Shown: piece after piece, positions 28,305 through 59,249 of the stretch
Position numbering within the stretch: the stretch's first letter is position 1
How the letters are laid out: the number at the start of each line of letters is the position of its first letter
Source of the DNA: Candidatus Iainarchaeum sp.
Lineage (GTDB): Archaea > Iainarchaeota > Iainarchaeia > Iainarchaeales > UBA10191
Assembly (NCBI GenBank): GCA_030649735.1
Contig: JAUSFL010000036.1
Coordinates: 32,001 to 96,000, forward strand
Length of the DNA: 64,000 nt
Direction of reading: 5' to 3'
Translations under genes and position numbers: made by a program
Notes under the pieces: generated by a model
The model's database searches: none
Seen by the model: the letters and a program-made list of their open reading frames with translations, nothing else
Told to the model about the DNA's origin: nothing

Positions 28305-28383
28305 AATTAAAGATTTAATTCTGCTAAAGGATTAAAAACTGGTTTTAAATCAGAATAAAAGCATTAACAATCTTAATTTTGGA

Positions 28384-47928: not shown

Positions 47929-48597
47929 ATGAGTGAAAATTTTGCAAGATTATTGCTTTACACAGACCAGGAAGTTTTTGCCGAAAAAAACTCTGGGAAA
48001 ATCAGGCTTTTGGAGACAGAATTCAATGACGAGGAAATTCCTGAAGAAGCCCTTGCAAAAAAAGCCCAAGAAGTTTGGGGCGTAAGGCCGGAAAACCTGA
48101 AATTATTGTGCGTTCTGCCAAAAGCAAACAGCGAATTTGTCCACTATTATGCCAGCAGGGACTGGAACGGAAGCTTTGAAAACTGCCAAGTTGAAGAAAT
48201 AGTCACTGTAGACTTCAAGGAAATGACGGAATTTGCAGAAAAAAATGACATTCTTGCAGCGCAAGTCCTGGAAAAAATCGTTTTAGGAAAAGACTTCAAA
48301 AAGCCTTCAACAATTGCTGCATCGCAAGCGCAAAGGCCAATTAACGACGACTTTGAAATCATCAGGCCAAAACAGCAAAAAACCGAAGCGCATGTTCCTG
48401 AAAGCACTTCAGACTTTGAAATAATCCGCGCAGTGCCTAAAGGAATGGGCCGCAAGCAGCAGGAATCAACGCGTGAAGGAATAGACTTTGAGTTTTTGAG
48501 CCGCGGCGGAAAAAAGACAGAGCCCGGCCAAAAATCAAATTTCTTGGAGCCCCCAACCAAAACCAAGAAAGTGCAAAAAAGCGTTTTCGCCCCGTAA
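47929..48597 (+). CDS. Hypothetical protein with disordered C-terminus
   Basis: Possible degenerate Nudix-like N-terminus; DFEIIR-like repeats. Confidence 0.6.
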   Translation: MSENFARLLLYTDQEVFAEKNSGKIRLLETEFNDEEIPEEALAKKAQEVWGVRPENLKLLCVLPKANSEFVHYYASRDWNGSFENCQVEEIVTVDFKEMTEFAEKNDILAAQVLEKIVLGKDFKKPSTIAASQAQRPINDDFEIIRPKQQKTEAHVPESTSDFEIIRAVPKGMGRKQQESTREGIDFEFLSRGGKKTEPGQKSNFLEPPTKTKKVQKSVFAP

Positions 48598-48623
48598 TTT
48601 TTAATTTTTATGAAGTGGTTTGG

Positions 48624-49637
48624 ATGATTATAGTTTTAGGCAAGGCCAGCGAAAAGCAAGTCCAGCAAATTCTTGACAAAATCAAGGAGAAAGGCTTCAA
48701 GCCGCACGTCATTCAAGGAAGCCAAAAAACAGTCATTGCAGTCATTGGAAACAATGCAGCCGCATTCATTGAAGAATTCAGGCAAATGCCAGGCGTTGAA
48801 AGCGTTGCGCAAGTCAGCGCCGCATTCAAGCTCGCGTCCAAAGAAACGCACCACGAAAAAACCAGCATTAAAGTCGGCAGCGAAGTTTTTGGGAAAGGAA
48901 ACATTGGAATTATTGCAGGGCCTTGCGGAGTAGAGTCTGAAGAGCAAACTTTAAACACTGCAAAAGCATTGCAGCCTTTAGGAGTGAAGTTTTTCCGCGC
49001 CAGCATTTTCAAGCCGCGCACTTCCCCTTACGACTTTCAAGGAATTGGGCTGAAAGGACTGGAAATTCTTGAAAAAGTCCGTTCACAGTATGGAATGGCA
49101 ATAGAAACTGAAGTAATGGACGTTCGGGATGTAAAGCCAGTCAGTGAAGTTGTAGACTGCCTGCGTATTGGCGCGCGCAACATGCAAAACTTTGACCTTT
49201 TAAAGGAAGTTGGAAGGCAGGAAAAGCCAGTAATCCTAAAGCGCGGCCTTAGCGCGACAATTAAAGAATGGCTAATGGCTGCAGAATACATCCTAAGCGA
49301 AGGCAACAATAAAGTCATTTTGTGCGAGCGCGGCATTCGAACTTTCGAAACTGAAGCCAGAAACACTGCAGACATTTCTGCAATTCCTTTAGTGCATTTA
49401 ATGAGCCACTTGCCAGTAATTTTCGACCCAAACCATTCAACAGGCCGCAAGGACTTGATTCTGCCTTTAAGCAAGGCAGCAATTGCGGCAGGAGCCGACG
49501 GATTGCTTGTTGAAGTGCACGAGCATCCAGAAAAAGCTCTTTCTGATGCAAAGCAGCAATTCACTCCAAAAGAATTCGCGCAGTTTTTGCAGGAAATTCG
49601 CCCAATAGCAAAGGCAGTTGGAAAAACAATAATTTGA
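48624..49637 (+). CDS. aroF: 3-deoxy-7-phosphoheptulonate (DAHP) synthase, type I-beta with ferredoxin-like regulatory domain
   Basis: IAGPC, KPRTSPYDFQG, IGARNMQNF, LCERGIRTFE, EVH. Confidence 0.93.
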   Translation: MIIVLGKASEKQVQQILDKIKEKGFKPHVIQGSQKTVIAVIGNNAAAFIEEFRQMPGVESVAQVSAAFKLASKETHHEKTSIKVGSEVFGKGNIGIIAGPCGVESEEQTLNTAKALQPLGVKFFRASIFKPRTSPYDFQGIGLKGLEILEKVRSQYGMAIETEVMDVRDVKPVSEVVDCLRIGARNMQNFDLLKEVGRQEKPVILKRGLSATIKEWLMAAEYILSEGNNKVILCERGIRTFETEARNTADISAIPLVHLMSHLPVIFDPNHSTGRKDLILPLSKAAIAAGADGLLVEVHEHPEKALSDAKQQFTPKEFAQFLQEIRPIAKAVGKTII

Positions 49638-49648
49638 AGGAAACTGCA

Positions 49649-50431
49649 ATGCCAAAAAAGCCAGCAAAAATTGCAAAGCCAATCCAACAACAGCCTAAAA
49701 AACGGTTTTTCAAAAGGGCTTTAGTGACTGGCGGAGTGATTGCTGGATTGACGCTTGGCGGAATTACAGCACTAAAAAATTCAGCATTGCGGGAAAAGAT
49801 TGAATTCAAAAGAGCAGAGATTTCCGCAATTCGGGCTGAAAAAAAAGGCCAATTTTCAATCGGCTTTTGGGCAAATTCAAAAAAGCCAGAACAGCTTTCA
49901 AAGACAGTGAATTACGCGCTTGGCTTTTTGCAAAAGGAATTGCCTGCAGAACTGAATGGAAAAAAAGTAAGCGTTTACCTTGTGAACGAGCTTCCAAAGA
50001 CAGGATTTACTGAATCTTACGATTTGGCGCTCGCTAAAGCTAAAACTCCAAAAAGATTTGTCGACACTCCGGTTAATTTTGTTCCTGGAGAAACTCCCGC
50101 ATTTAATGTCCACTTGAACTTGCAAGAGGTTACAAACTCACTGGGCAAGCTTGCAAGCGTTGAAAGAATCAATGCAAGAAGCTTTGGGCTAATCTTCAAC
50201 CAAGTTGCCGGAACCGCAATTATTTTTGAAAAAAACAGGAGCATAATTGACCGAAGATATGCCACAACTTCAGAAATGCGCCATGAATTGGAATTAAAGA
50301 CTTTTGAGAAAGGAATTGGGGCTCTTTCAAGATTCGCGCAAAACAGGCCAAAAAATTCCCGATTCAGGCAAAACCTTGAACTAGAGGTAAAATTCCAGCA
50401 AGGGCTTCTTGAAAGCTGGAAGCGTTTTTAA
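49649..50431 (+). CDS. Basic hypothetical protein with one N-terminal TM segment
   Basis: MPKKP... basic N-terminus followed by hydrophobic helix. Confidence 0.6.
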   Translation: MPKKPAKIAKPIQQQPKKRFFKRALVTGGVIAGLTLGGITALKNSALREKIEFKRAEISAIRAEKKGQFSIGFWANSKKPEQLSKTVNYALGFLQKELPAELNGKKVSVYLVNELPKTGFTESYDLALAKAKTPKRFVDTPVNFVPGETPAFNVHLNLQEVTNSLGKLASVERINARSFGLIFNQVAGTAIIFEKNRSIIDRRYATTSEMRHELELKTFEKGIGALSRFAQNRPKNSRFRQNLELEVKFQQGLLESWKRF

Positions 50432-50461
50432 CTATTTTCCAAAACAAGTTCTAAAACAAGC

Positions 50462-50532
50462 GCAGCCGTAGTGTAGCGGTAGCATCCGACCTTCCCAAGG
50501 TCGTAGCCCGAGTTCGAATCCCGGCGGCTGCA
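50462..50532 (+). tRNA. tRNA-Gly(CCC)
   Basis: GCAGCCG/CGGCTGC, CGACC-TT-CCC-AA-GGTCG; T-stem CCGAG/CCCGG has one A-C mismatch. Confidence 0.93.
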
Positions 50533-50591
50533 TTTGAGAAAATAGCAGTAGATTCTTATACTACCTCCAACTTTTTGTTTGCTGGTTATAG

Positions 50592-51596
50592 ATGAAAAAG
50601 ATTGTTTTTGGGCTAATTTTGTTAATTGCTTTGTTTTTGGTTTTTGGATGTACAAGCCCAAACACTATCCCAAATGATAGCGGCTCGAGCGCAACTCCAA
50701 ATAATAGCGGCCCGAACGTAACTCCAGATAATGGCGGCTCAAATAATTCTGGCAACGGTCAGACTTCCCTGGAACTTACTTTTTTGCCGCCTGCTGTGCT
50801 TCCAGAAGCAGCGGAAGGCACTGATTATTTATATAGTTTTTGCAAACCGCAGTCTGCAATATCAAGCGATTGGAGTTGTGGGTATCGTGGAAGTCCAGGA
50901 GGGACAACAGATCCTAAGGGGGGAACTTGGGCGTATTCGTTCACACCTCAACCTAGCGAATCCTTGCCAGAGGGACTCTACCTTGGCTATAATGGATTAT
51001 TTAAAGGCACGCCAAGGATTCCTGGAACCTATACTTTTGACATATGTGTACGCGAAGATCAACAAGTCAAACTTTGTAAAACCACTTCTATAACTGTCGC
51101 GCCTTACAAGCAAAAAGTGGATTACAATGTTTCAATAACAATTGACTCGGCGGACATCAGCAAATGCAAAATAAGCACCTACTATAACGGTGCTTGGGAA
51201 GTTACTGCCCATGGAACAATGACATCTAATGTAAACTTTCGAGAAGGGTATGGAAATACGAACGGAGATAAAGCCCCCGCTGTTGAATTTTGGATGCTAG
51301 CCACTACCGCAAAATATGGGGAGATGGGTTATACTGTAGATGCAGAAGATATGGATTGCGGGGCATGGAAATTAGTCGATAAAGAAGGACATTTACCGTA
51401 TTGCGAGAAAGAAGCTGGAGACCCTGACACAGCCATTTGGAAACTCACTTATTCAAGGGGAACTATTGCATCAGAAATTGTAAGCGTTGGGGCAAGCATA
51501 ACTTCTTACAATCCAAACTATTATGCAGATTATGTTCCGATTTCGACCGAGTTAACATTATATTCTAAGATTACAAAATCAGCCGGCACCTGCTAG
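50592..51596 (+). CDS. Lipoprotein-like surface protein with Ig-like (He_PIG-type) domain; cargo of cassette 1
   Basis: MKK-hydrophobic-FGC lipobox, Asn/Ser/Pro linker, LPEGL...GTP..PGTYTF. Confidence 0.75.
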   Translation: MKKIVFGLILLIALFLVFGCTSPNTIPNDSGSSATPNNSGPNVTPDNGGSNNSGNGQTSLELTFLPPAVLPEAAEGTDYLYSFCKPQSAISSDWSCGYRGSPGGTTDPKGGTWAYSFTPQPSESLPEGLYLGYNGLFKGTPRIPGTYTFDICVREDQQVKLCKTTSITVAPYKQKVDYNVSITIDSADISKCKISTYYNGAWEVTAHGTMTSNVNFREGYGNTNGDKAPAVEFWMLATTAKYGEMGYTVDAEDMDCGAWKLVDKEGHLPYCEKEAGDPDTAIWKLTYSRGTIASEIVSVGASITSYNPNYYADYVPISTELTLYSKITKSAGTC

Positions 51597-51600
51597 TGTG

Positions 51601-51638
51601 GATATCTAACCCCAACCCGCTAAAACTCGGCGGCTGCA
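51601..51638 (+). repeat. Conserved arm plus tRNA-Gly 3'-end copy (att-like site 2)
   Basis: GATATCTAACCCCAACCCGCTAAAA-CTCGGCGGCTGCA. Confidence 0.85.
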
Positions 51639-51831
51639 TCAGCAGACGCGACTGCTTACTGCCAACAAACTAATAAAATAAGCAAAGACCGCAAAAATGG
51701 GCTTTAAGCTTGTTTTTGGCTTTTAACTGCATAATTGGCTTATTTTAAGCGTTTAAAGCAGGAGAAAGCTCCTGATTAAATCAAGAAAAGCTTTAAATAT
51801 TGCGCAATAGTATTGTAATTACAATTAGTCC

Positions 51832-51857
51832 CCTGCCATTGCTTCGGCAACGGCAGG
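51832..51857 (+). other. Stable cUUCGg hairpin upstream of NYN gene (candidate sRNA)
   Basis: CCTGCC-A-TTGC-TTCG-GCAA-C-GGCAGG, TATA-like box upstream, T-tract downstream. Confidence 0.5.
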
Positions 51858-51920
51858 CTTTCTCTTATTCTCTTTTTTTTTCCATTCTGCTTAAATATTT
51901 CTTCAGCAATAAATGATTCA

Positions 51921-52547
51921 ATGCTAAAGAAAATTGTATTTGTTGATGGGAGCAACTTGTACCATTCAATGAGAGATGACAATATTGACCCAAGAATAAT
52001 CGACTTGGCAAAATTCTTTGAGAAAATTAGCGGGGAAAAAGATCCAACAGTAAGGTATTATACTGCCCCGAGAAAAAGAGAAGAAGACGCTGAAAAATAC
52101 GTTCAACAGCAAAGATTCTTTACAGAATTAAAGAACAGAAACCCGAATTTGACAATAATCTTTGGAAGGCTTCAAAAGAACAAGGAAGCAGACCCAAAAG
52201 CAAGAAGCCTGGTTGTGAAAGCATTGGGCTTTTGCGAGAATTGCGCTCAAAAAATACCCAAATTATTCTCAACACTAAGAATTGACAAACCGCACCGGGA
52301 AAAAGGAGTTGACGTGAAAATTGCCTTGGACTTGGCAATAATGGCAGGAACAAATGAATTTGACTTAGCAATACTCCTTTCAGGAGACGCTGACTTGGCT
52401 CCAGCAGTCCAAATAGCAGTCAAGAACGGAAAGAAAGTAATTAACGGAAGATTCAAAAATTCAAGCTCCAGCGAACTAAGAAACATTTGCACTTCCAACT
52501 TTCTAATAACCGAAGAAATACTGAAAGATTGCGTTAGAAAACACTAA
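51921..52547 (+). CDS. NYN/LabA (PIN-like) domain ribonuclease
   Basis: VFVDGSNLYH, EKGVDVKIALD, LSGDADLAP. Confidence 0.92.
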   Translation: MLKKIVFVDGSNLYHSMRDDNIDPRIIDLAKFFEKISGEKDPTVRYYTAPRKREEDAEKYVQQQRFFTELKNRNPNLTIIFGRLQKNKEADPKARSLVVKALGFCENCAQKIPKLFSTLRIDKPHREKGVDVKIALDLAIMAGTNEFDLAILLSGDADLAPAVQIAVKNGKKVINGRFKNSSSSELRNICTSNFLITEEILKDCVRKH

Positions 52548-52557
52548 GGTTGATTTT

Positions 52558-53049
52558 ATGAAAGAAAGAAAAGAAGAATTAGCAAAGGTAACAAGGCAAG
52601 AATTTTTCAAAGAACTCAATAAATTGAAAATCAGAAAAATATTGAAAGTACCTAATGAGTACCTTGTTGGAAAGGAGAGATTTTTAGGAGACTATTACGT
52701 TGGCTGGTTGGCTGATATTTTAGATTACCAAAATGAAGAGAAAATAGTAGATCTTGGAGTGGCTTACCTTTTTGGACGGGCTTTTGTTATTGCGCAGGAC
52801 AGAATTCTAGATAATCCTTGCCAGGAAAACAAAGATTATGTAATTGCAGCCCCCATATTACTTAAAGAATTCTTAGAAAGAAATCAAAAAATAGTTGGGA
52901 ATTCTAATTTTGAAAAAGAGGCGGGCCAAGTACTATTTGAATACACGTTAGCAAATCTGAAAGAATCAAAAAGAAAGAAAAGCCCATTCACAAAGTTCCT
53001 CACTGAAGAAATAATAAAACAACATTCAAAGAAACAGAAAGTGATTTGA
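52558..53049 (+). CDS. Hypothetical helical protein, possibly truncated
   Basis: 163-aa ORF; QDRILD resembles a DDxxD-type motif. Confidence 0.55.
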   Translation: MKERKEELAKVTRQEFFKELNKLKIRKILKVPNEYLVGKERFLGDYYVGWLADILDYQNEEKIVDLGVAYLFGRAFVIAQDRILDNPCQENKDYVIAAPILLKEFLERNQKIVGNSNFEKEAGQVLFEYTLANLKESKRKKSPFTKFLTEEIIKQHSKKQKVI

Positions 53050-53474
53050 TGCAAATTGGGAAAGACTTTATTGGAGTGAGTTGCGGAGCGCAAATAATCA
53101 ATGAGAAAAAGCAGATTTTACTAATGAAAAGAAGCAAAAAATGCAAAAACAAGCCAGGCTATTGGATGAATGCCGGCGGAAAAGTCGAATTCTTTGAAAA
53201 AATAGAAAACGCGGTAAAAAGAGAGGTAATGGAAGAACTCGGCGTTAAAATCAAAATACTGAAATTGCTTCCAGTGCTTGACGACATTAAAACAGCAGAA
53301 AAACAGCATTGGATAGCCCCGCAATTCCTTTGCAAAATAACAAAAGGCGCTCCGCGAAACAAGGAGCCGGAAAAATGCGAGGAAATCAAATGGTTTAACT
53401 TGGAGAAAATCCCAAAAAAGACAACAAAAACAACAAAAAACGGAGTAAGAGAAATCAAAAAGATAGTGAAATAA
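53049..53474 (+). CDS. Nudix hydrolase
   Basis: GGKVEFFE...AVKREVMEELG Nudix box; EPEKC. Confidence 0.92.
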   Translation: MQIGKDFIGVSCGAQIINEKKQILLMKRSKKCKNKPGYWMNAGGKVEFFEKIENAVKREVMEELGVKIKILKLLPVLDDIKTAEKQHWIAPQFLCKITKGAPRNKEPEKCEEIKWFNLEKIPKKTTKTTKNGVREIKKIVK

Positions 53475-53938
53475 TGATTATCCGAAAAGCCAAGCTTGAA
53501 AACGCGAGAGAAATAAGCCTGCTCTTATGCAATACAATAAAAACAGTGAATCGCAAGGACTATACTGCCAGGCAAATTAAAGCATGGTTAACAAGAAACG
53601 ATTACAAGTCAATCAAAAATAAAATACTAAGCGGAAGAACCATCTTTGTCGCCATTAACAAATCAAAAATTGTCGGCATAATCGCCTTATTTCTTAACGA
53701 ATGCAAAATTGGCGCACTTTATGTCAAACACACCCTGCACAACCAAGGCATAGGCACAAAACTGTTAAATTATGCTGAAAAACTGGCCAAAAGAAAAGGC
53801 TTGAAAAAGCTAAAGCTAAATTCAACAAAAACTGCTTTTGAATTCTACAAAAGCAAAGGATACAAAAAAATTAGAATGGCAAGCCATACAACAAATGGCG
53901 TCAAAACTCCAACAATACTAATGGTAAAAAATTTATGA
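53474..53938 (+). CDS. GNAT family N-acetyltransferase
   Basis: IRKA start, LYV..HNQGIGTKLL, AFEFYKSKGY. Confidence 0.92.
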   Translation: MIIRKAKLENAREISLLLCNTIKTVNRKDYTARQIKAWLTRNDYKSIKNKILSGRTIFVAINKSKIVGIIALFLNECKIGALYVKHTLHNQGIGTKLLNYAEKLAKRKGLKKLKLNSTKTAFEFYKSKGYKKIRMASHTTNGVKTPTILMVKNL

Positions 53939-54044
53939 ACCAACAAAATAAAGGAGTTGAAATTATGAAAAAAACCTTAGAACTGGATCGAATCCAATCT
54001 TCCGAAAACCGCAAGCCTCAAACTGCCCACCCAGCAAGCAGAGG

Positions 54045-54058
54045 TCCCGGCGGCTGCA
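54045..54058 (+). repeat. tRNA-Gly 3'-end copy (att-like site 3)
   Basis: TCCCGGCGGCTGCA, identical to 50519-50532. Confidence 0.8.
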
Positions 54059-54101
54059 AAAATATTTAAAGCCAGCAAAACTTGATTCTATTGATGATTA
54101 A

Positions 54102-54884
54102 ATGAAAAAAGTATTTGCTTTAATTTTGATAATTATCGGCTTGGCTGCTGCTATTTTTCTTGGTAGTTCGCTGTTTGATAAACTTAGTTATTTTTTGATT
54201 GCAGTCTTCGGACTATTTTTCATGCTTAAACCAGGAAAACAAGTGCAGATTAACAAAGAAACTGTCACTCCAGAATCAGCCAATATTTTATTTAAAGAGC
54301 ATGATTTTACAGAGAATGAAAAAGAATCATATCGAGAAGCATTGCTTCAGGTCAAGGACATTACAGAAAACCCTTCAAAATGGGCGGCCTTTATTATTTT
54401 TTCAGGAGTACTCTCAATTCCTGTTTTTTTAAGCAAAACCATGTCAACAATCCCTGCATTGCTTGTTTTAAGCATTGCATTTGTACTCGCTCTTTTCATT
54501 AAAGAGCTTAATATTTTTGCTATAAGAGGCAATAAGTTTTACCAGCTTATCGGGGGTTTAGCTTTTGTCTACGTCTTTACAGGGGCGGGGTTTTTAATTA
54601 GCGTTGGCGAGTCTGGCAAAACTTTCATTCCGATAAATTGGATTCAAATTGGATATTATTACTTGTATTTTTTATCATTCCTCACTTGTATTGCATTAGC
54701 AACCATTGGGCTTGTTTACTTCAAGAAAACAAAAAGAAACCTTTACGAAGCATTAGTGTATCGAGAAAACACAACCCTAACCAGCAGCATCTTATTTGCA
54801 AGAGGATATTTGATAGCTATCAACATTTTTTCAATTTTTATGATAGCTTACAATGTAGTGCTTGCAATTTTGTTCATCCAATAA
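54102..54884 (+). CDS. Multi-pass membrane protein; cargo of cassette 3
   Basis: About seven hydrophobic segments. Confidence 0.7.
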   Translation: MKKVFALILIIIGLAAAIFLGSSLFDKLSYFLIAVFGLFFMLKPGKQVQINKETVTPESANILFKEHDFTENEKESYREALLQVKDITENPSKWAAFIIFSGVLSIPVFLSKTMSTIPALLVLSIAFVLALFIKELNIFAIRGNKFYQLIGGLAFVYVFTGAGFLISVGESGKTFIPINWIQIGYYYLYFLSFLTCIALATIGLVYFKKTKRNLYEALVYRENTTLTSSILFARGYLIAINIFSIFMIAYNVVLAILFIQ

Positions 54885-54933
54885 AAAAGAGAATATTTAA
54901 ATATCTGCAGATAATATTAGGAACTGATAATTG

Positions 54934-55116
54934 ATGACTCTAGAATTTAATAACCCAATATTCCCTGCTTTGGGACTTTTATTAATCGTCATTTCAATAA
55001 TTGACATTTTTATCTCAAGCTCAATGCTTTCATTAGTTGGGGATGCCCTTGGAATTATTGCTGGTTTAGCGCTTATAATAAGATACTTTTTAACAAAAAA
55101 AGGTGCGAAAAAATGA
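54934..55116 (+). CDS. Small two-TM membrane protein
   Basis: Hydrophobic 60-aa ORF overlapping the next start (ATGA). Confidence 0.55.
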   Translation: MTLEFNNPIFPALGLLLIVISIIDIFISSSMLSLVGDALGIIAGLALIIRYFLTKKGAKK

Positions 55117-55505
55117 AATTGAGTCTTTTGATTATTTTTGGAATAATGTGTCTCGTAACTCTTAGTGGTTGCGCACAAAACCCCAGTGATACTCCATTAA
55201 TTGTAAGACAAAACTTTGACAACATTGACTTAAGTAATTTCCAAAACTGCAAAGGCGTTTTTTTAGTACAAGACAGTTATGATATCGGACTTGCAGTCTT
55301 TGTTGCGGGAGATGTTGCAAAGGGAGAAATAGCCGTTGGGGATAAAACTAATATAGATGGAAATACAATAGTAGTAAAAACCATTGAAGGCAATAAGAAA
55401 CAATGGGATAAAGCCATTAAAACATACCGTGTTGGGCTAAACTTTGAAAGACAAATTACAAAAGAGTCATATAAGCCAAACGACCTTATCTGCTTCAACC
55501 CTTGA
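55113..55505 (+). CDS. Small lipoprotein
   Basis: MK-hydrophobic-LSGC lipobox. Confidence 0.7.
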   Translation: MKLSLLIIFGIMCLVTLSGCAQNPSDTPLIVRQNFDNIDLSNFQNCKGVFLVQDSYDIGLAVFVAGDVAKGEIAVGDKTNIDGNTIVVKTIEGNKKQWDKAIKTYRVGLNFERQITKESYKPNDLICFNP

Positions 55506-55526
55506 TTACATTTAAGGAATCTGACA

Positions 55527-55563
55527 GATACTAACCCCAACCTGCTAACACTCGGCGGCTGCA
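55527..55563 (+). repeat. Conserved arm plus tRNA-Gly 3'-end copy (att-like site 4, distal)
   Basis: GATACTAACCCCAACCTGCTAACA-CTCGGCGGCTGCA; near-identical to 51601-51638. Confidence 0.85.
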
Positions 55564-55617
55564 TTTTGCAGTAAGAATTTAAACAACTTGATCCTTCAAA
55601 TTAAGTGCTGGTTTTGA

Positions 55618-55830
55618 ATGGGTGCTGAAGAAAAAATGAGCAGGGAAGCTTTTGACCGCTTCAACAACTTAAAAATGGCTTACGGTTCAATGATTGTTGA
55701 CTTCACTTTTAACGCGTTAAAGATCAGGATGCCAATGGCGAGCGATGACGAGCTGGTGGTTGCAGTCGCTAAACGCTTGAGGAAAAAAAAGAATGAAAAA
55801 TTGCTGGAAAAGCAGAATTCGCTGTTGTAA
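55618..55830 (+). CDS. Small hypothetical protein
   Basis: 70-aa ATG ORF. Confidence 0.55.
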   Translation: MGAEEKMSREAFDRFNNLKMAYGSMIVDFTFNALKIRMPMASDDELVVAVAKRLRKKKNEKLLEKQNSLL

Positions 55831-55843
55831 AATCAAGAGAGAA

Positions 55844-56845
55844 TCATTTCTTTTTTTTCAGGAAATCCAGCGCTATTTCATTTATTGAATGCTTTGCAAT
55901 AGTGAATTTTTCATAGTCTTTAAGGTAAAAGTAAACGCCCAGTTGGAAAAAGTCCTTGCCGACTTTTTCAATGTAGATTTTAAAAGATGATTTTTTTTCC
56001 AATCCTTCAATCCTGCCAGCGCCGGCCTTTTTTTCAAGCAAGGAAACCAGCTTTTTCACGCCAGCCCATGCCGGAACATCAATCAAGACTATTGCATTAG
56101 AATCGTGGTATGTTCTGGAAAGGTTTGTAATGCGCTGTTTTGCAAACTCGCTGTTGGAAATTATTATTTTGTTTCCATTCAAGTCTTCAAGCATTGCGCT
56201 CCGCAATCCGATTTTTTCAAGCCTTGCAATTTCATCATTGTTGAGCTTTAAGAAATCCCCGTAATAGAACGGTCTGTCAAGCTGTAATGCCAGGCCTGCA
56301 AACAAATTTGCCAAGGTTTCCTGGGAAGCAAGCCCTAAAACCAGGACAGCAACGCTTGTTACTGCCAAGACTCCTGTCAAGTCAACGCCAATCACTGCCA
56401 GGCCTATTGAAATTCCCAATAAGGGGATTACAACACGGGAAATTTTCCTTACAAAAGGCAATAATGAAATGTCCATTTTGAATTTTGAAAGCTCATTCCC
56501 TTCAACGTAATACCACCGCAATAAGGCCCCAAAAATTTCAGAAAGCATGAAAGAGGCAAGAATGATTATTATTGAAAGCAAGTATTTTGAAATCGCCTGG
56601 CTTATGGCCTGCAAGTTTGCAAAAAGCCCTGAAAGAAAAAACAATGCCAATAGAATGACTATTGTTTGAAGCGGCTTTTCCATTGCCTCAATTAGGAAGT
56701 CGTCAAGCTTGCTTTTTGTTTCCCTAGTCAGCCTTTTGAAAACTAGCAAAATTGCCTTGTGCAGGAATTTTCCCAGAAAAAAGCCCAAAAAAGCAATGAC
56801 TAGGATTTCAAATCCAAAAACCGCAAAATCTACCAGCAAAACCAT
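55844..56845 (-). CDS. mscS: Small-conductance mechanosensitive channel (MscS family)
   Basis: GLASQETLANLFAGL..DRPF..GD, IGLRS, ISNS. Confidence 0.9.
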   Translation of the reverse strand: MVLLVDFAVFGFEILVIAFLGFFLGKFLHKAILLVFKRLTRETKSKLDDFLIEAMEKPLQTIVILLALFFLSGLFANLQAISQAISKYLLSIIIILASFMLSEIFGALLRWYYVEGNELSKFKMDISLLPFVRKISRVVIPLLGISIGLAVIGVDLTGVLAVTSVAVLVLGLASQETLANLFAGLALQLDRPFYYGDFLKLNNDEIARLEKIGLRSAMLEDLNGNKIIISNSEFAKQRITNLSRTYHDSNAIVLIDVPAWAGVKKLVSLLEKKAGAGRIEGLEKKSSFKIYIEKVGKDFFQLGVYFYLKDYEKFTIAKHSINEIALDFLKKKK

Positions 56846-56912
56846 ACCATGTAACTTAATGTCAAAAGTTTAAAAAACACATTATAAAAACAAAATCCTT
56901 GACTAATTGATA

Positions 56913-59249
56913 ATGCAGGCAAAAAAGCCAGAATTGATTCTTCCAGCCGGAAATTTCGAGAATTTGAAGGCCGCGGTCTTGAACGGCGCAGACTCTGTTT
57001 ACGGCGGGGCTAAAAAGTTTAATGCGCGCATTCCTGCAGCAAACTTTGCAGAAAACGAGCTGAATGACGGAATAGACTACTGTCACTTGCATGGAAAGCG
57101 CTTTTACCTAACGCTCAACACGCTAATTAAAGACTCGGAACTGGAAGAGGCGATTGGAATTGCAAAAAACGCTTTCGAACTGGGCGTTGATGCAATAATC
57201 TGCCAGGATTTGGGATTAATCAATGCTTTAAGAGAGCTTTTGCCAGAATTGGAAATTCACGCAAGCACGCAAACAACCTGCCATAACAGCGCTGGCGCAA
57301 AGTTTTTGGAAAACTTGGGGGTTAAGAAAATTGTTCTGGCAAGAGAGCTTTCCCTGCAGGAAATCAAGGAAATCAAAAAAAGCACAAGTGCAGGAATTGA
57401 ATGCTTCATTCACGGGGCATTGTGCTTTTCCTACTCGGGACAGTGCCTGTTCAGCAGTTTTGCATTCAATAAGTCTGGCAATCGCGGGCGATGCCTGCAG
57501 CCTTGCAGGCTAAAGTTCGAGCTTTACTCAAAAGAAGGCATTGAGAAAGGATTTGTGCTTTCAATGAAAGACCTGATGACAATTTACGGCATTAAAGAGC
57601 TCATTAACGCTGGAATTGATTCTTTCAAGGTTGAGGGAAGATTGAAGGGCATTGCTTACGTTGCGTCAGTCGCGCGCGCCTATCGGAAAGCAATAGACTC
57701 TTGCTTTGGCAATTCGGAAAGGCCTTCTGAAGAGGATGTAAAACTAATGAAGATTGCATTCTTGCGCGAGGCGACTAAAGGCTATTTTTTCGAGCAGGAA
57801 ACAATGACTTTTCCTGAAACTCCAATGAGAAAGGGAGTTCTTGCCGCAAAAGTCATTGGGTTCAAGGGAAGGGCAATCAGGCTGAAATTGTTTGAAAGCA
57901 TTTACAAGTGGGACAGGCTCACTGCGTTAAAGGATGATTCTTTGGAAGAATTCAGCGCTGCAAAAATTTTCAGGGATGGAAAGGAAGTGCCAAAGGCAAT
58001 CAAGGGAAACGAGATTGTGATTGAAACCGGCGAAAAGCCATTCTTGGAAATTGGGCAGGAATTGTTTTTTACCTCGCACAAGCTTTTGAAAGACCTGGAG
58101 GAAAAGGCATTGTTTGGCGGGAAAAAAGTTTTTTACTCATTGAAAGTTTTTGCAAAAGTGGGGGAAAACTTGAAGGCGATTGCGGAGTTTGCGGGCAAAA
58201 AATCCGAAGTCGAGTTTGACTTCAGGCCAGAGGCCGCAAAAACTTCGGAATTTTCTGAAAAAATGCTCAAAGAACGCCTGTTCAAAGAGGATGATTTTTT
58301 CAAGCCAGTGAAGTTTGAGGCAAAAATTGATGGCAAAATCTTTATTCCAGTAAGCAAGCTCAAGGAATTCCAAAAGGCAATAATGGATTCAATGCGCGAA
58401 AAATTCTTTGAAGAATTCAGGAAAACTGCCGGAAGCGATTTTGAAGGCAGGATGAAAAGAATGCTTAATTTCAAGGCTCAAAAAATCGGGAAAGAAAAAC
58501 GGGAAATCGCGGTTTTTTGCGACAGTGTTGAACAGGCAGGGCTTGCAAAAGAAAACGCGGATTTTATTGCATTCTATGATTGCGTGGGACTGGAAAAAAT
58601 AGAGAAATTTGCAAAGGAAAATCCGGCAATAAAAATTTTTGTGAAATCTTCAAACATTCAGTCAGACAAGGAATTGCAAGAGTTCGAAAAAAACTTTCTG
58701 AAAGCAAAAACCCCAATAATTTGCTCTAACCTCGGGGTTTTGCAAAAGGCAATTGAGGCAAAATCAAGGTTTTGGGCTGACAGGGAATTGAATTGCTTTA
58801 ATTCATTAAGCGCAAGGCTTTTGGCAGGCCTTGGGGCTGAAAGAATAATTCCTTCTTCCGAATGCTCTTTGCAGCAGCTGGAAATGATTTCAGAAAAGCA
58901 AAAGATCATGCCGCTTGTTTTCCAGTATCCTTTGCTAATGACTTCAAAGGCTTTTGCAAAGAACAGGAAGCCAGGCCGGCTTGATTTGAAGGACAGGAAA
59001 GGATTCGCTTACAGGGCGGTTGTTGAACAAAACGGATTGTTCAGGATTTACAATCCAGTGCCTTTAAGCATGATTTTTGAAGTTGAAAAATTTGGAGAGT
59101 TTTCAGCAATTGGGCTGGATTTCAGGGAAGCCGGCGTGAAAGAAGCCAAGGAAAGCCTTGAGTTCTTGCGTGAAAAGCTTGCTGGAAAAAGCCCCAGGAA
59201 AGAATTCGCGAAATTCACGCGCGGGCATTATTTCAACGAGCTTGAATGA
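56913..59249 (+). CDS. Peptidase U32 family protein (RNA-hydroxylation RlhA/TrhP-like, long form)
   Basis: PELILPAG, HASTQ, LARELSL, HGALCFSYSGQC, NRGRCLQPCR, KVEGR. Confidence 0.9.
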   Translation: MQAKKPELILPAGNFENLKAAVLNGADSVYGGAKKFNARIPAANFAENELNDGIDYCHLHGKRFYLTLNTLIKDSELEEAIGIAKNAFELGVDAIICQDLGLINALRELLPELEIHASTQTTCHNSAGAKFLENLGVKKIVLARELSLQEIKEIKKSTSAGIECFIHGALCFSYSGQCLFSSFAFNKSGNRGRCLQPCRLKFELYSKEGIEKGFVLSMKDLMTIYGIKELINAGIDSFKVEGRLKGIAYVASVARAYRKAIDSCFGNSERPSEEDVKLMKIAFLREATKGYFFEQETMTFPETPMRKGVLAAKVIGFKGRAIRLKLFESIYKWDRLTALKDDSLEEFSAAKIFRDGKEVPKAIKGNEIVIETGEKPFLEIGQELFFTSHKLLKDLEEKALFGGKKVFYSLKVFAKVGENLKAIAEFAGKKSEVEFDFRPEAAKTSEFSEKMLKERLFKEDDFFKPVKFEAKIDGKIFIPVSKLKEFQKAIMDSMREKFFEEFRKTAGSDFEGRMKRMLNFKAQKIGKEKREIAVFCDSVEQAGLAKENADFIAFYDCVGLEKIEKFAKENPAIKIFVKSSNIQSDKELQEFEKNFLKAKTPIICSNLGVLQKAIEAKSRFWADRELNCFNSLSARLLAGLGAERIIPSSECSLQQLEMISEKQKIMPLVFQYPLLMTSKAFAKNRKPGRLDLKDRKGFAYRAVVEQNGLFRIYNPVPLSMIFEVEKFGEFSAIGLDFREAGVKEAKESLEFLREKLAGKSPRKEFAKFTRGHYFNELE

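Follow-up and report, generated by a model that had tools for sequence, protein, structure and literature searches.

An array of small integrase-free gene units behind the tRNA-Gly(CCC) gene of a Candidatus Iainarchaeum genome

The tRNA-Gly(CCC) gene of a small groundwater archaeon assigned to Candidatus Iainarchaeum is followed by an array of gene-bearing intervals which are separated by copies of the last 13 nucleotides (nt) of the tRNA. The array lies in a 64,000-nt stretch of DNA, hereafter the window, which corresponds to G000:C46:32001-96000 in a genome assembly (G000) of 51 contigs and 1,281,898 nt that is 92.7% complete. The first and the third interval (units 1 and 3) carry unrelated cargo, encode no integrase and end in a common arm of sequence directly ahead of the repeat. 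The repeats are very probably the scars of integrase-type recombination at attachment (att) sites. That the cassettes are small integrase-free units served by an integrase in trans, a supply that we infer, is given an even chance. The anchor, the four copies of the 13-nt core and the two arm-bearing units, all on the + strand, are as follows (ORF, open reading frame; aa, amino acids).

50462..50532, + strand: tRNA-Gly(CCC), the anchor and attL side (ARAGORN; Rfam RF00005, 58 bits)
50520..50532, + strand: core copy 0, CCCGGCGGCTGCA, made up of the T-stem 3' strand, the acceptor 3' strand and the discriminator
50533..51625, + strand: unit 1, 1093 nt, with a 59-nt leader containing a TATA-like box, an ORF and the arm
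50592-51596, + strand: unit 1 ORF, a 334-aa Ig-domain (He_PIG/Ig) lipoprotein (Pfam)
51597-51625, + strand: unit 1 arm, GTGGATATCTAACCCCAACCCGCTAAAA
51626..51638, + strand: core copy 1, CTCGGCGGCTGCA, attR of unit 1 (motif match)
54046..54058, + strand: core copy 2, CCCGGCGGCTGCA, which follows an unrelated arm and overlaps a 34-codon ORF
54059..55550, + strand: unit 3, 1492 nt, with a TATA-like box, three ORFs and the arm
54102-54884, + strand: unit 3 membrane protein of 260 aa, an ORFan
54931-55116, + strand: unit 3 small transmembrane ORF
55113-55505, + strand: unit 3 lipoprotein of 130 aa
55506-55550, + strand: unit 3 arm, TTGATTACATTTAAGGAATC...GATACTAACCCCAACCTGCTAACA
55551..55563, + strand: core copy 3, CTCGGCGGCTGCA, attR of unit 3, with a CTGCA-TTT-TGCAG dyad behind it

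Repeats of the tRNA 3' end

A search of the window for CYCGGCGGCTGCA with up to one mismatch allowed returned four matches, at 50520, 51626, 54046 and 55551, which are all on the + strand and all free of mismatches. The chance expectation is 0.04 and four matches were reached in none of 100 shuffles. The core-to-core spacings of 1106, 2420 and 1505 nt leave intervals of 1093, 2407 and 1492 nt between the cores. In the whole of G000 the 13-mer occurs at these four places only, and the 11-mer CGGCGGCTGCA has two further matches, both within giant ORFs (1036 and 2646 aa). Motif scan, shuffles and whole-genome search thus confirm the recurrence of the tRNA end at 51626, 54046 and 55551 that had been noticed in a first-pass annotation. 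The insert is flanked by direct repeats of the tRNA 3' end and the tRNA itself is intact, as in tRNA-targeted elements, and the view taken in that annotation of the repeats as att-type duplications of the tRNA 3' end is supported.

The core exists in two forms, CTCGG in copies 1 and 3 and CCCGG in the tRNA and copy 2, which leaves CGGCGGCTGCA as the invariant block. The T at core position 2 accompanies the arm in all four cases at hand, relatives included, which places the exchange point to the right of that T. The T stem of the tRNA-Gly(CCC) (50510-50524) has an A:C mismatch with the CCCGG form in the ARAGORN drawing, which the CTCGG of the arm-linked copies would turn into A-U; in a relative of the same family (G003) the form is CCCGG and the stem is fully paired.

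It is very improbable that the repeats are something other than the scars of mobile elements, namely tRNA pieces with an RNA function, chance matches or an artefact of assembly. In two genomes, G030 and G028, a second tRNA-Gly 3' end does belong to a real or likely tRNA-Gly(UCC) gene, which in G030 bears a 42-nt intron (ARAGORN) and in G028, where ARAGORN makes no call, is probably tRNA-Gly(UCC) from a reading of the anticodon arm. Against this, 50000-56500 of the window contains only one tRNA (ARAGORN with introns allowed, Rfam), the core copies come without a T loop, and the likeness of the arms to tRNA is not significant, its score being reached in 137 to 1910 of 2000 shuffles, so that the arms were rejected as degenerate tRNA copies. 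The repeats are far beyond chance, and a Logan contig from run X1 (29,484 nt, an independent assembly) spans 48500-57500 with 0 differences. The order of the parts of the array is therefore reproduced, X1 probably being the source sample.

The two-copy loci of G030 (2.5 kb) and G028 (3.45 kb), which hold Fic, thymidylate kinase and HD genes, were themselves considered as integrase-free islands and rejected, as the second copy is tRNA-Gly(UCC) in G030 and probably so in G028. A thymidylate kinase gene lies between the tRNA-Gly(CCC) and the UCC copy in both (L074 and L075), the two being 2.5-3.5 kb apart. Intron-blind tRNA finders miss the UCC gene, which then mimics an att repeat.

Cargo and shared arm of units 1 and 3

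Over the 30 nt ahead of the core units 1 and 3 are identical at 24 positions, a score reached in one of 1000 shuffles, and the longer comparison of 51606-51639 with 55531-55564 gives 94% identity over 34 nt. The statement that two cassettes with unrelated cargo end in the same arm is thereby borne out. The description of the cargo also holds, with a lipoprotein in the first interval, NYN, orphan, NUDIX and GNAT ORFs in the second, and membrane proteins and a lipoprotein in the third (Pfam), as does its orientation, since the array ORFs in all three intervals are on the + strand with the tRNA. TATA-like boxes can be read from the sequence 5-25 nt past each core. With a GC content of 43-44% unit 1 looks host-like in a genome of about 41-42%, whereas the values for the middle segment and unit 3, 32-37%, fit a foreign origin. 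Among the candidates scored, none is related to the 260-aa protein of unit 3. Unit 3 was also compared at its left end with the distal flank of the array, and the likeness is not significant (186/2000 shuffles).

The three complete units, which include one from a related archaeon (L043, below), measure 1093, 1492 and about 580 nt; they give no PF00589 signal and have no room for an integrase remnant. Neither pseudogene nor spare DNA is seen in units 1 and 3 or in the L043 unit, an absence of relics which does not exclude decay.

The same site in related archaea

The tRNA-Gly site was compared in a same-family set of three genomes, an order-level set of 196 genomes and metagenome contigs. G003, of the same family as G000 and of a different genus, has an intact tRNA-Gly(CCC), and immediately behind it come TCAGCAGACGTGG, a non-coding block that is conserved and then a Fic gene. 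As far as arm-bearing units are concerned this genome is in the unoccupied state, the empty site that belongs to a tRNA-targeted element. L043, a metagenome contig of 2.9 kb, matches the window with 84.45% identity over 2161 nt, through the last tRNA base. There it departs into an unrelated unit of about 580 nt, which encodes a 165-aa Cys-rich lipoprotein and closes with a related arm and then a CTCGG core; at the core and flank the contig rejoins the window for 31 nt (96.8%). Past the core it reads TCAGCAGACGCGA, followed by the same non-coding block as in G003 and the start of the Fic gene. In same-genus contig material (L094 and L151, of which L151 carries the same arm, core and flank as L094) an RmlD-like ORF is followed by GTGGATAACTAACCCCAACCC..., a CTCGG core and the same flank. 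Since the flank is common to G003, L043, L151 and the window, TCAGCAGACG... is the normal sequence downstream of tRNA-Gly. The cargos of unit 1, of the L043 unit and of the L094/L151 unit are thus three different insertions at precisely the point between the tRNA end and this flank, and each came with an arm and a CTCGG core.

The first-pass annotation proposed a tRNA-anchored gene-capture platform, a reading that is supported in part. Two of the outcomes which it named as refuting are not borne out: the locus is not invariant among relatives, being empty in G003 and filled with other cargo in L043 and L094/L151, and the arm does occur elsewhere, with other cargo and in another species (L094/L151).

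Relative to unit 1 the arm of L151 is identical at 24 of 30 positions and that of L043 at 13 of 30. The genome on the L094/L151 side, which is of the same genus, is 72% identical in the DAHP synthase gene and L043 84%, yet it is the former whose arm is closer. In addition the arms of L043 and unit 3 have a second, distal block in common (1/1000 shuffles). The likeness of the arms, running against species distance, and this distal block argue that the arms arrive with the cargo and are not one inherited scar.

These comparisons bear on the possibility, considered improbable, that arm, core and flank are an old, vertically inherited scar, and that the genes between it and the tRNA are exchanged through homologous or illegitimate recombination, as in a strain-variable 'flexible island', without any site-specific step today. 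The conservation of the flank in G003, L043 and L151 would provide homology for such exchange, and a strain contig joined at 51666/53037 (described below) shows change away from the cores. It is hard to reconcile with the presence of the same arm at two cores of a single genome, beside different cargo each time, and with arm similarity that runs against species distance; moreover homologous exchange only shifts the origin of the cargo to other strains.

Further afield, the core-plus-flank pattern is present in four of the 196 order genomes, the match in G132 lying inside an ORF and being taken as chance. The family of the L043 Cys-rich lipoprotein gives weak matches in 57 of the 196, which are uninformative on context. 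The conserved non-coding block between the tRNA-Gly flank and the Fic gene (L076 of G003, L043 and L151) contains inverted repeats, AAGTTATCAC...GGTGGTGATAAC, with GGTGGTGATAAC present twice; it may act as an operator or encode a small RNA, and is lost in the window.

The middle segment

Between cores 1 and 2 lie the following features.

51639..51666, + strand: remnant of the native tRNA downstream flank, TCAGCAGACGCGACTGC..., the same flank as in G003, L043 and L151
51667..53036, + strand: strain-variable block (X2 contig, Pfam)
51832-51881, + strand: hairpin and T-run in 254 nt of non-coding sequence of the variable block (sequence)
51921-52547, + strand: NYN (Pfam)
52558-53049, + strand: orphan ORF
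53046-53474, + strand: NUDIX (Pfam)
53474-53938, + strand: GNAT (Pfam)

This segment had been counted as a second cassette of the same kind, a description which does not stand: it starts with native flank, ends in a different right arm, is closed by a CCCGG core and contains a strain break that is not at a core. The native flank extends only 17-28 nt after core 1, and the flank remnant at 51639..51666 forms an 8-4-8 inverted repeat with the core. The break is seen in a contig from run X2, one of two other groundwater studies (X2 and X3; the X runs are represented by contigs), which is about 90-96% identical to the window and passes from 51666 to 53037 through 29 other letters, so that 1370 nt are absent. 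In the X2 strain NUDIX and GNAT therefore stand directly behind the flank and NYN and the orphan are absent; an X2 contig on 53051-53640 has 23 differences. We infer that the middle segment is the remainder of an older insert, whose attR would be core 2 followed by TTTTGCAG....

The hairpin at 51832-51881 is a strong TTCG-loop structure (CCTGCC.TTGC/GCAA.GGCAGG) with a T run after it, situated in a 282-nt non-coding stretch before NYN, and has no match in Rfam.

A parallel case in another family

In a large protein search the unit 1 lipoprotein has two relatives only among the candidates scored, at 55-56% identity. One belongs to a genome of another family (G158; 59% identity in a separate comparison). 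A homologue of the protein, P0004, is on a 94-kb contig. The G158 homologue is itself a single-gene, integrase-free unit between direct repeats of 54-70 nt. The leaders of the unit 1 and G158 genes are homologous and in both the alignment begins at the first base after the repeat (0/2000 shuffles), with 3' flanks that are not homologous (176/2000). In the sequences of this one pair the shared start of the leader agrees with a packet whose left end is defined, and counts against the random end-point of a deletion. A kinship of the window arm with the G158 repeats was tested and is not significant (176/2000; 47-979/1000).

The G158 locus (L162, G158:C10, 9254-11115) contains two single-gene units between three repeats, the second unit being a 149-aa ORF. 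In the manner of a C/D-box small RNA gene the third repeat shows C and D boxes and, at its termini, GGCC stems, with an Rfam score far below threshold (E 0.4).

Recombinases and integrase-bearing islands

A scan of G000 with PF00589 gave five hits, none of them within 24 kb of the array, and confirms the claim that no integrase is present in or near it. In the window (C46) the sole PF00589 hit is sub-threshold and lies inside a DEAD-box helicase. The units thus lack an integrase of their own, as tRNA-targeted elements would have (Pfam and PF00589; for the L043 unit by reading). Serine recombinases (PF00239) have no match in G000. PF07282 gave no match inside the window, where not all ORFs were searched for transposase or replication genes; two TnpB-like genes are on C44. 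Elsewhere in the genome C49 encodes a strong Xer-like protein (PF00589, E 2.8e-47), C37 an intact 405-aa integrase with PF00589 and a C-terminal zinc ribbon, C47 an integrase that is cut by the contig end, and C44 an integrase interrupted by one TGA (226 + 191 aa). The integrases of C37, C47 and C44 are candidate helpers of the units.

Two of these genes belong to recognisable islands. On C44 an island of 13 kb (G000:C44:51153-64240, its start being L004) follows tRNA-Gln(TTG) and a 16-17 nt repeat of the tRNA end is found 13 kb downstream. Its attR has GGAATTCTTAC 14 nt ahead of the core, which matches the arm motif at 8 of 11 positions and at the same distance. This likeness, noticed post hoc and expected by chance about 1 time in 100, is a weak lead to a cognate integrase. 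The C37 integrase (G000:C37:38139-39505) directly follows an intron-bearing tRNA, which ARAGORN calls Ile(gat) with an intron and whose anticodon loop was read by eye as GTT. The matching 22-nt attR is at G000:C45:38189 (minus strand), the island being split between C37 and C45 by the assembly, and its attR arm has only an out-of-register CGCTAAA in common with the cassette arm.

Homologues of the C37 integrase are present in 140 of the 196 order genomes, with a tRNA just upstream in 22 of the 30 best loci. Repeats were surveyed in up to 20 kb of DNA from 20 relatives' loci and the C44 locus of G000 itself. At 10 of these 21 integrase loci the end of the tRNA was found again 4.1-17.5 kb downstream, as a repeat of 12-18 nt starting from the T-stem 3' strand, the other 11 having none within the fetched DNA. 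In its make-up the tRNA-Gly core is the same as the att repeats of the order's integrase-bearing islands, in which the integrase is at the tRNA side and the cargo at the far end. An arm motif common to all integrase-bearing islands was sought in the 10 attR arms and none was visible.

Origin of the array

It is proposed that the four repeats are att junctions which would have arisen by tyrosine-integrase-type insertions into the 3' end of tRNA-Gly(CCC), with exchange within CGGCGGCTGCA. An old insertion, of which 51639-54045 would be the remnant, may already have placed TCAGCAGACG... behind the tRNA in the ancestor of the family, leaving a second CCCGG core ahead of the original flank, TTTTGCAG.... 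Unit 1 would then have entered at the tRNA-side site and unit 3 afterwards at the distal site. Together with the units of L043 and L094/L151 they would form one cassette family, consisting of a promoter-like leader, one to three mostly surface or membrane genes and an arm of 25-55 nt, which is composed of GGATNNCTAAC, a spacer of 14-15 nt (N14/15) and the CTCGG core. Insertion, and presumably excision, would be carried out in trans by an integrase of the family that targets tRNA 3' ends and is common in the order. The repeats, the empty and the differently filled sites, the common arm, the lack of an integrase and the core make-up common to the islands are observed. The order of events, given here in its most economical form, the identity of the acting integrase and continued movement are drawn from these comparisons.

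Several results weigh against mobilisation in trans. The left ends of the units have no detectable shared site, which is unusual for the attP of a tyrosine recombinase, and no arm motif firmly ties the cassettes to one integrase of G000. Elsewhere in G000 the arm is not found at up to three mismatches, so the genome holds no other arm and core. A strict arm-plus-core pattern had no match in genomes, viral contigs or metagenome contigs, although it is too strict in that it would miss the L151 arm; a looser pattern run on genomes and viral contigs matched one other genome record and no viral one. In the contigs of the X runs neither an excised circle, an attP form nor an empty-site variant appeared. 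Unit 1 is kept, at about 94-95% identity, in X2 and X3 contigs, and is therefore stable over a divergence of about 5-10% between strains, which implies slow turnover. The X2 break falls inside the middle segment away from any core, and the L094/L151 unit is assembled without its left end. Finally, a review reports that tandem integrations and integrase-less integrated elements are known in archaea and ascribes the latter to gene loss (PMC8371274).

This last point leads to a serious rival, which is held to be on the unlikely side: the units would be the attR-proximal remainders of larger integrase-bearing elements that have decayed and are now fixed and immobile. Loss of the integrase is the accepted reading of integrase-less archaeal elements in that review, where tandem integration is also known, and a decay route of the same kind is described for bacterial elements (PMC5704250). 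In the islands of the order the integrase stands at the tRNA side, so that a deletion at that side would leave cargo, arm and core, and the integrase of the tRNA-Gln island of G000 is already interrupted by a stop. The small genomes of the order (0.3-1.5 Mb) suggest a strong deletion bias, and the stability of unit 1 across related strains, the want of any free or larger arm-plus-core copy and of an excision product, and left ends that share no site all agree with fixed remnants.

Decay would, however, require at least three independent clean deletions, in unit 1, unit 3 and the L043 unit. Each of them would have to spare a promoter-plus-gene packet, intact and at 37-59 nt from the core, without pseudogene debris, and the homology of the G158 leader from the first base after the core means that in unit 1 the deletion end-point would have to coincide with the core. 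Scans of G000, genomes, viral contigs and metagenome contigs found no larger relative with this arm.

A wider proposal, which is more tentative than the supply of an integrase in trans and falls somewhat short of an even chance, is that the locus represents a tRNA-anchored gene-capture system of DPANN archaea, distinct from integrons, in which cassettes are inserted into the last 11-13 nt of tRNA-Gly(CCC) or into displaced copies of them, the array grows at both ends of older inserts, and surface proteins are exchanged between species of these symbionts, which depend on their cell surface.

Neighbouring features and other observations

At the last core and downstream of the array are the following features.

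55564..55843, + strand: distal flank with a 70-aa ORF (55618-55830)
55844-56845, minus strand: MscS, then U32 peptidase
55277-55564, minus strand: 95-codon ORF at the last core

Coverage by other records is uneven. X4 contigs consist of short pieces only, at less than 90% identity. No listed X2 or X3 contig holds the unit 3 stretch 54219-55121 and none from X2 holds 52112-52713, which is not used as evidence. The junction of the tRNA with unit 1 has no bridging record among the listed X3 contigs (31-letter rule). One X1 record of depth 5 joins 50062 to 56909 with 14 other letters between them, possibly from a relative with another gene order.

Two other tRNA genes of G000 drew attention. The tRNA-Lys(TTT) stands at the ends of three contigs, C11, C20 and C49:35-109. 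C11 and C20 share the 40 nt past the tRNA and then continue differently, each into the opening of a long ORF; a mixture of strains or a locus that varies may lie behind this. The first 12 nt of tRNA-Ser(CGA) are present again at 28305 of the window (C46:60305) on the minus strand, 230 nt from tRNA-Leu(GAG), where they may be an undetected intron-bearing tRNA-Ser or a fragment.

Comparison with known systems

The array had been called integron-like. It resembles integron cassettes in consisting of small, co-oriented, recombinase-free packets with a conserved end site, which are stacked at one anchor and vary in content on the anchor side. Unlike in integrons, the anchor is a tRNA 3' end and not an attI site, and each unit seems to have its own TATA-like box. 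Membership of the integrons themselves is not upheld, there being no IntI and no attC-like hairpin: the PF00589 scan shows no IntI adjacent to the array within 24 kb, and single-strand DNA folds of four junctions contain no arm-spanning hairpin. The z scores in the window are -1.10, -1.09 and -0.51, and the value of -3.20 for the L043 junction is owed to two small local hairpins. Integrons have been reported in Archaea (bioRxiv 10.1101/2022.02.06.479319 / PMC9668308).

The array also resembles the cis-mobilizable elements (CIMEs) of streptococci, which are flanked by att sites, lack genes for integration and transfer, accrete in tandem at a tRNA or other target gene and could be moved by a helper that integrates next to them (PMC5704250). 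The att ends are likewise kept here and genes for integration and transfer are absent, so that the structural definition applies. CIMEs are, however, decay products of integrative and conjugative elements or integrative and mobilizable elements and usually retain relics, whereas the units described here are compact, relic-free and archaeal, with no question of conjugation. Derivation by decay, which belongs to the definition of CIMEs, finds no sign in the form of relics or of a larger element with the arm.

Integrative mobile elements exploiting Xer recombination (IMEX) and pdif modules are also integrase-free and use the Xer recombinase encoded by the host, and they can be stacked in tandem. 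They are alike in that the recombinase is encoded elsewhere, G000 having its Xer-like gene on C49. A dif-like site has two inverted arms of 11 bp around a 6-bp spacer, and no such 11-6-11 dyad is present in the arm and core, where only short dyads were seen, the 8-4-8 repeat of core and flank and the 5-3-5 dyad at the last core. The ATCTAA of the arm may resemble an archaeal dif half-site. For a split integrase of the type found in Sulfolobus spindle-shaped viruses (SSV) there is no PF00589 signal at the ends of the units, and the ORFs that cross the cores or start at them (34, 22 and 95 codons) are not conserved.

The likeness is greatest to the classical archaeal elements of the non-suicidal, SNJ2 type. 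According to the review, the att sites of archaeal tyrosine recombinases can be as short as 8-14 bp, and SNJ2-type elements use 13-14 nt at the very 3' end of the tRNA (PMC8371274). The repeat of the tRNA 3' end, the restored tRNA and the short block of identity (11-13 nt here) are shared with these elements. They differ in that the units here are 0.6-1.5 kb in size, carry one to three genes and no integrase, and combine several cargos with one arm. The host is moreover of the DPANN type, and the term DPANN does not occur in the text of that review. A full-text literature search for such arrays in DPANN archaea returned no paper among the matches listed. The locus appears to work most like tRNA-targeted integration with a short att site, and the new feature would be an arm-defined family of minimal cassettes in a DPANN-type archaeon, a group of hosts whose mobile elements are barely described.

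If the units are decayed islands, the locus is an ordinary though tidy case of accretion and streamlining. If they move by means of a recombinase in trans, it would provide a second route to the integron-like stacking of single genes, built on the ordinary machinery of tRNA integrases. The cargo consists mostly of lipoproteins, membrane proteins and a sugar-nucleotide enzyme, which concern the surface of small, probably host-attached archaea, and the locus may be where surface variation is acquired. With its 13-nt core, an arm of 25-55 nt, three candidate integrases and natural empty and filled sites, it also constitutes a clean test system.

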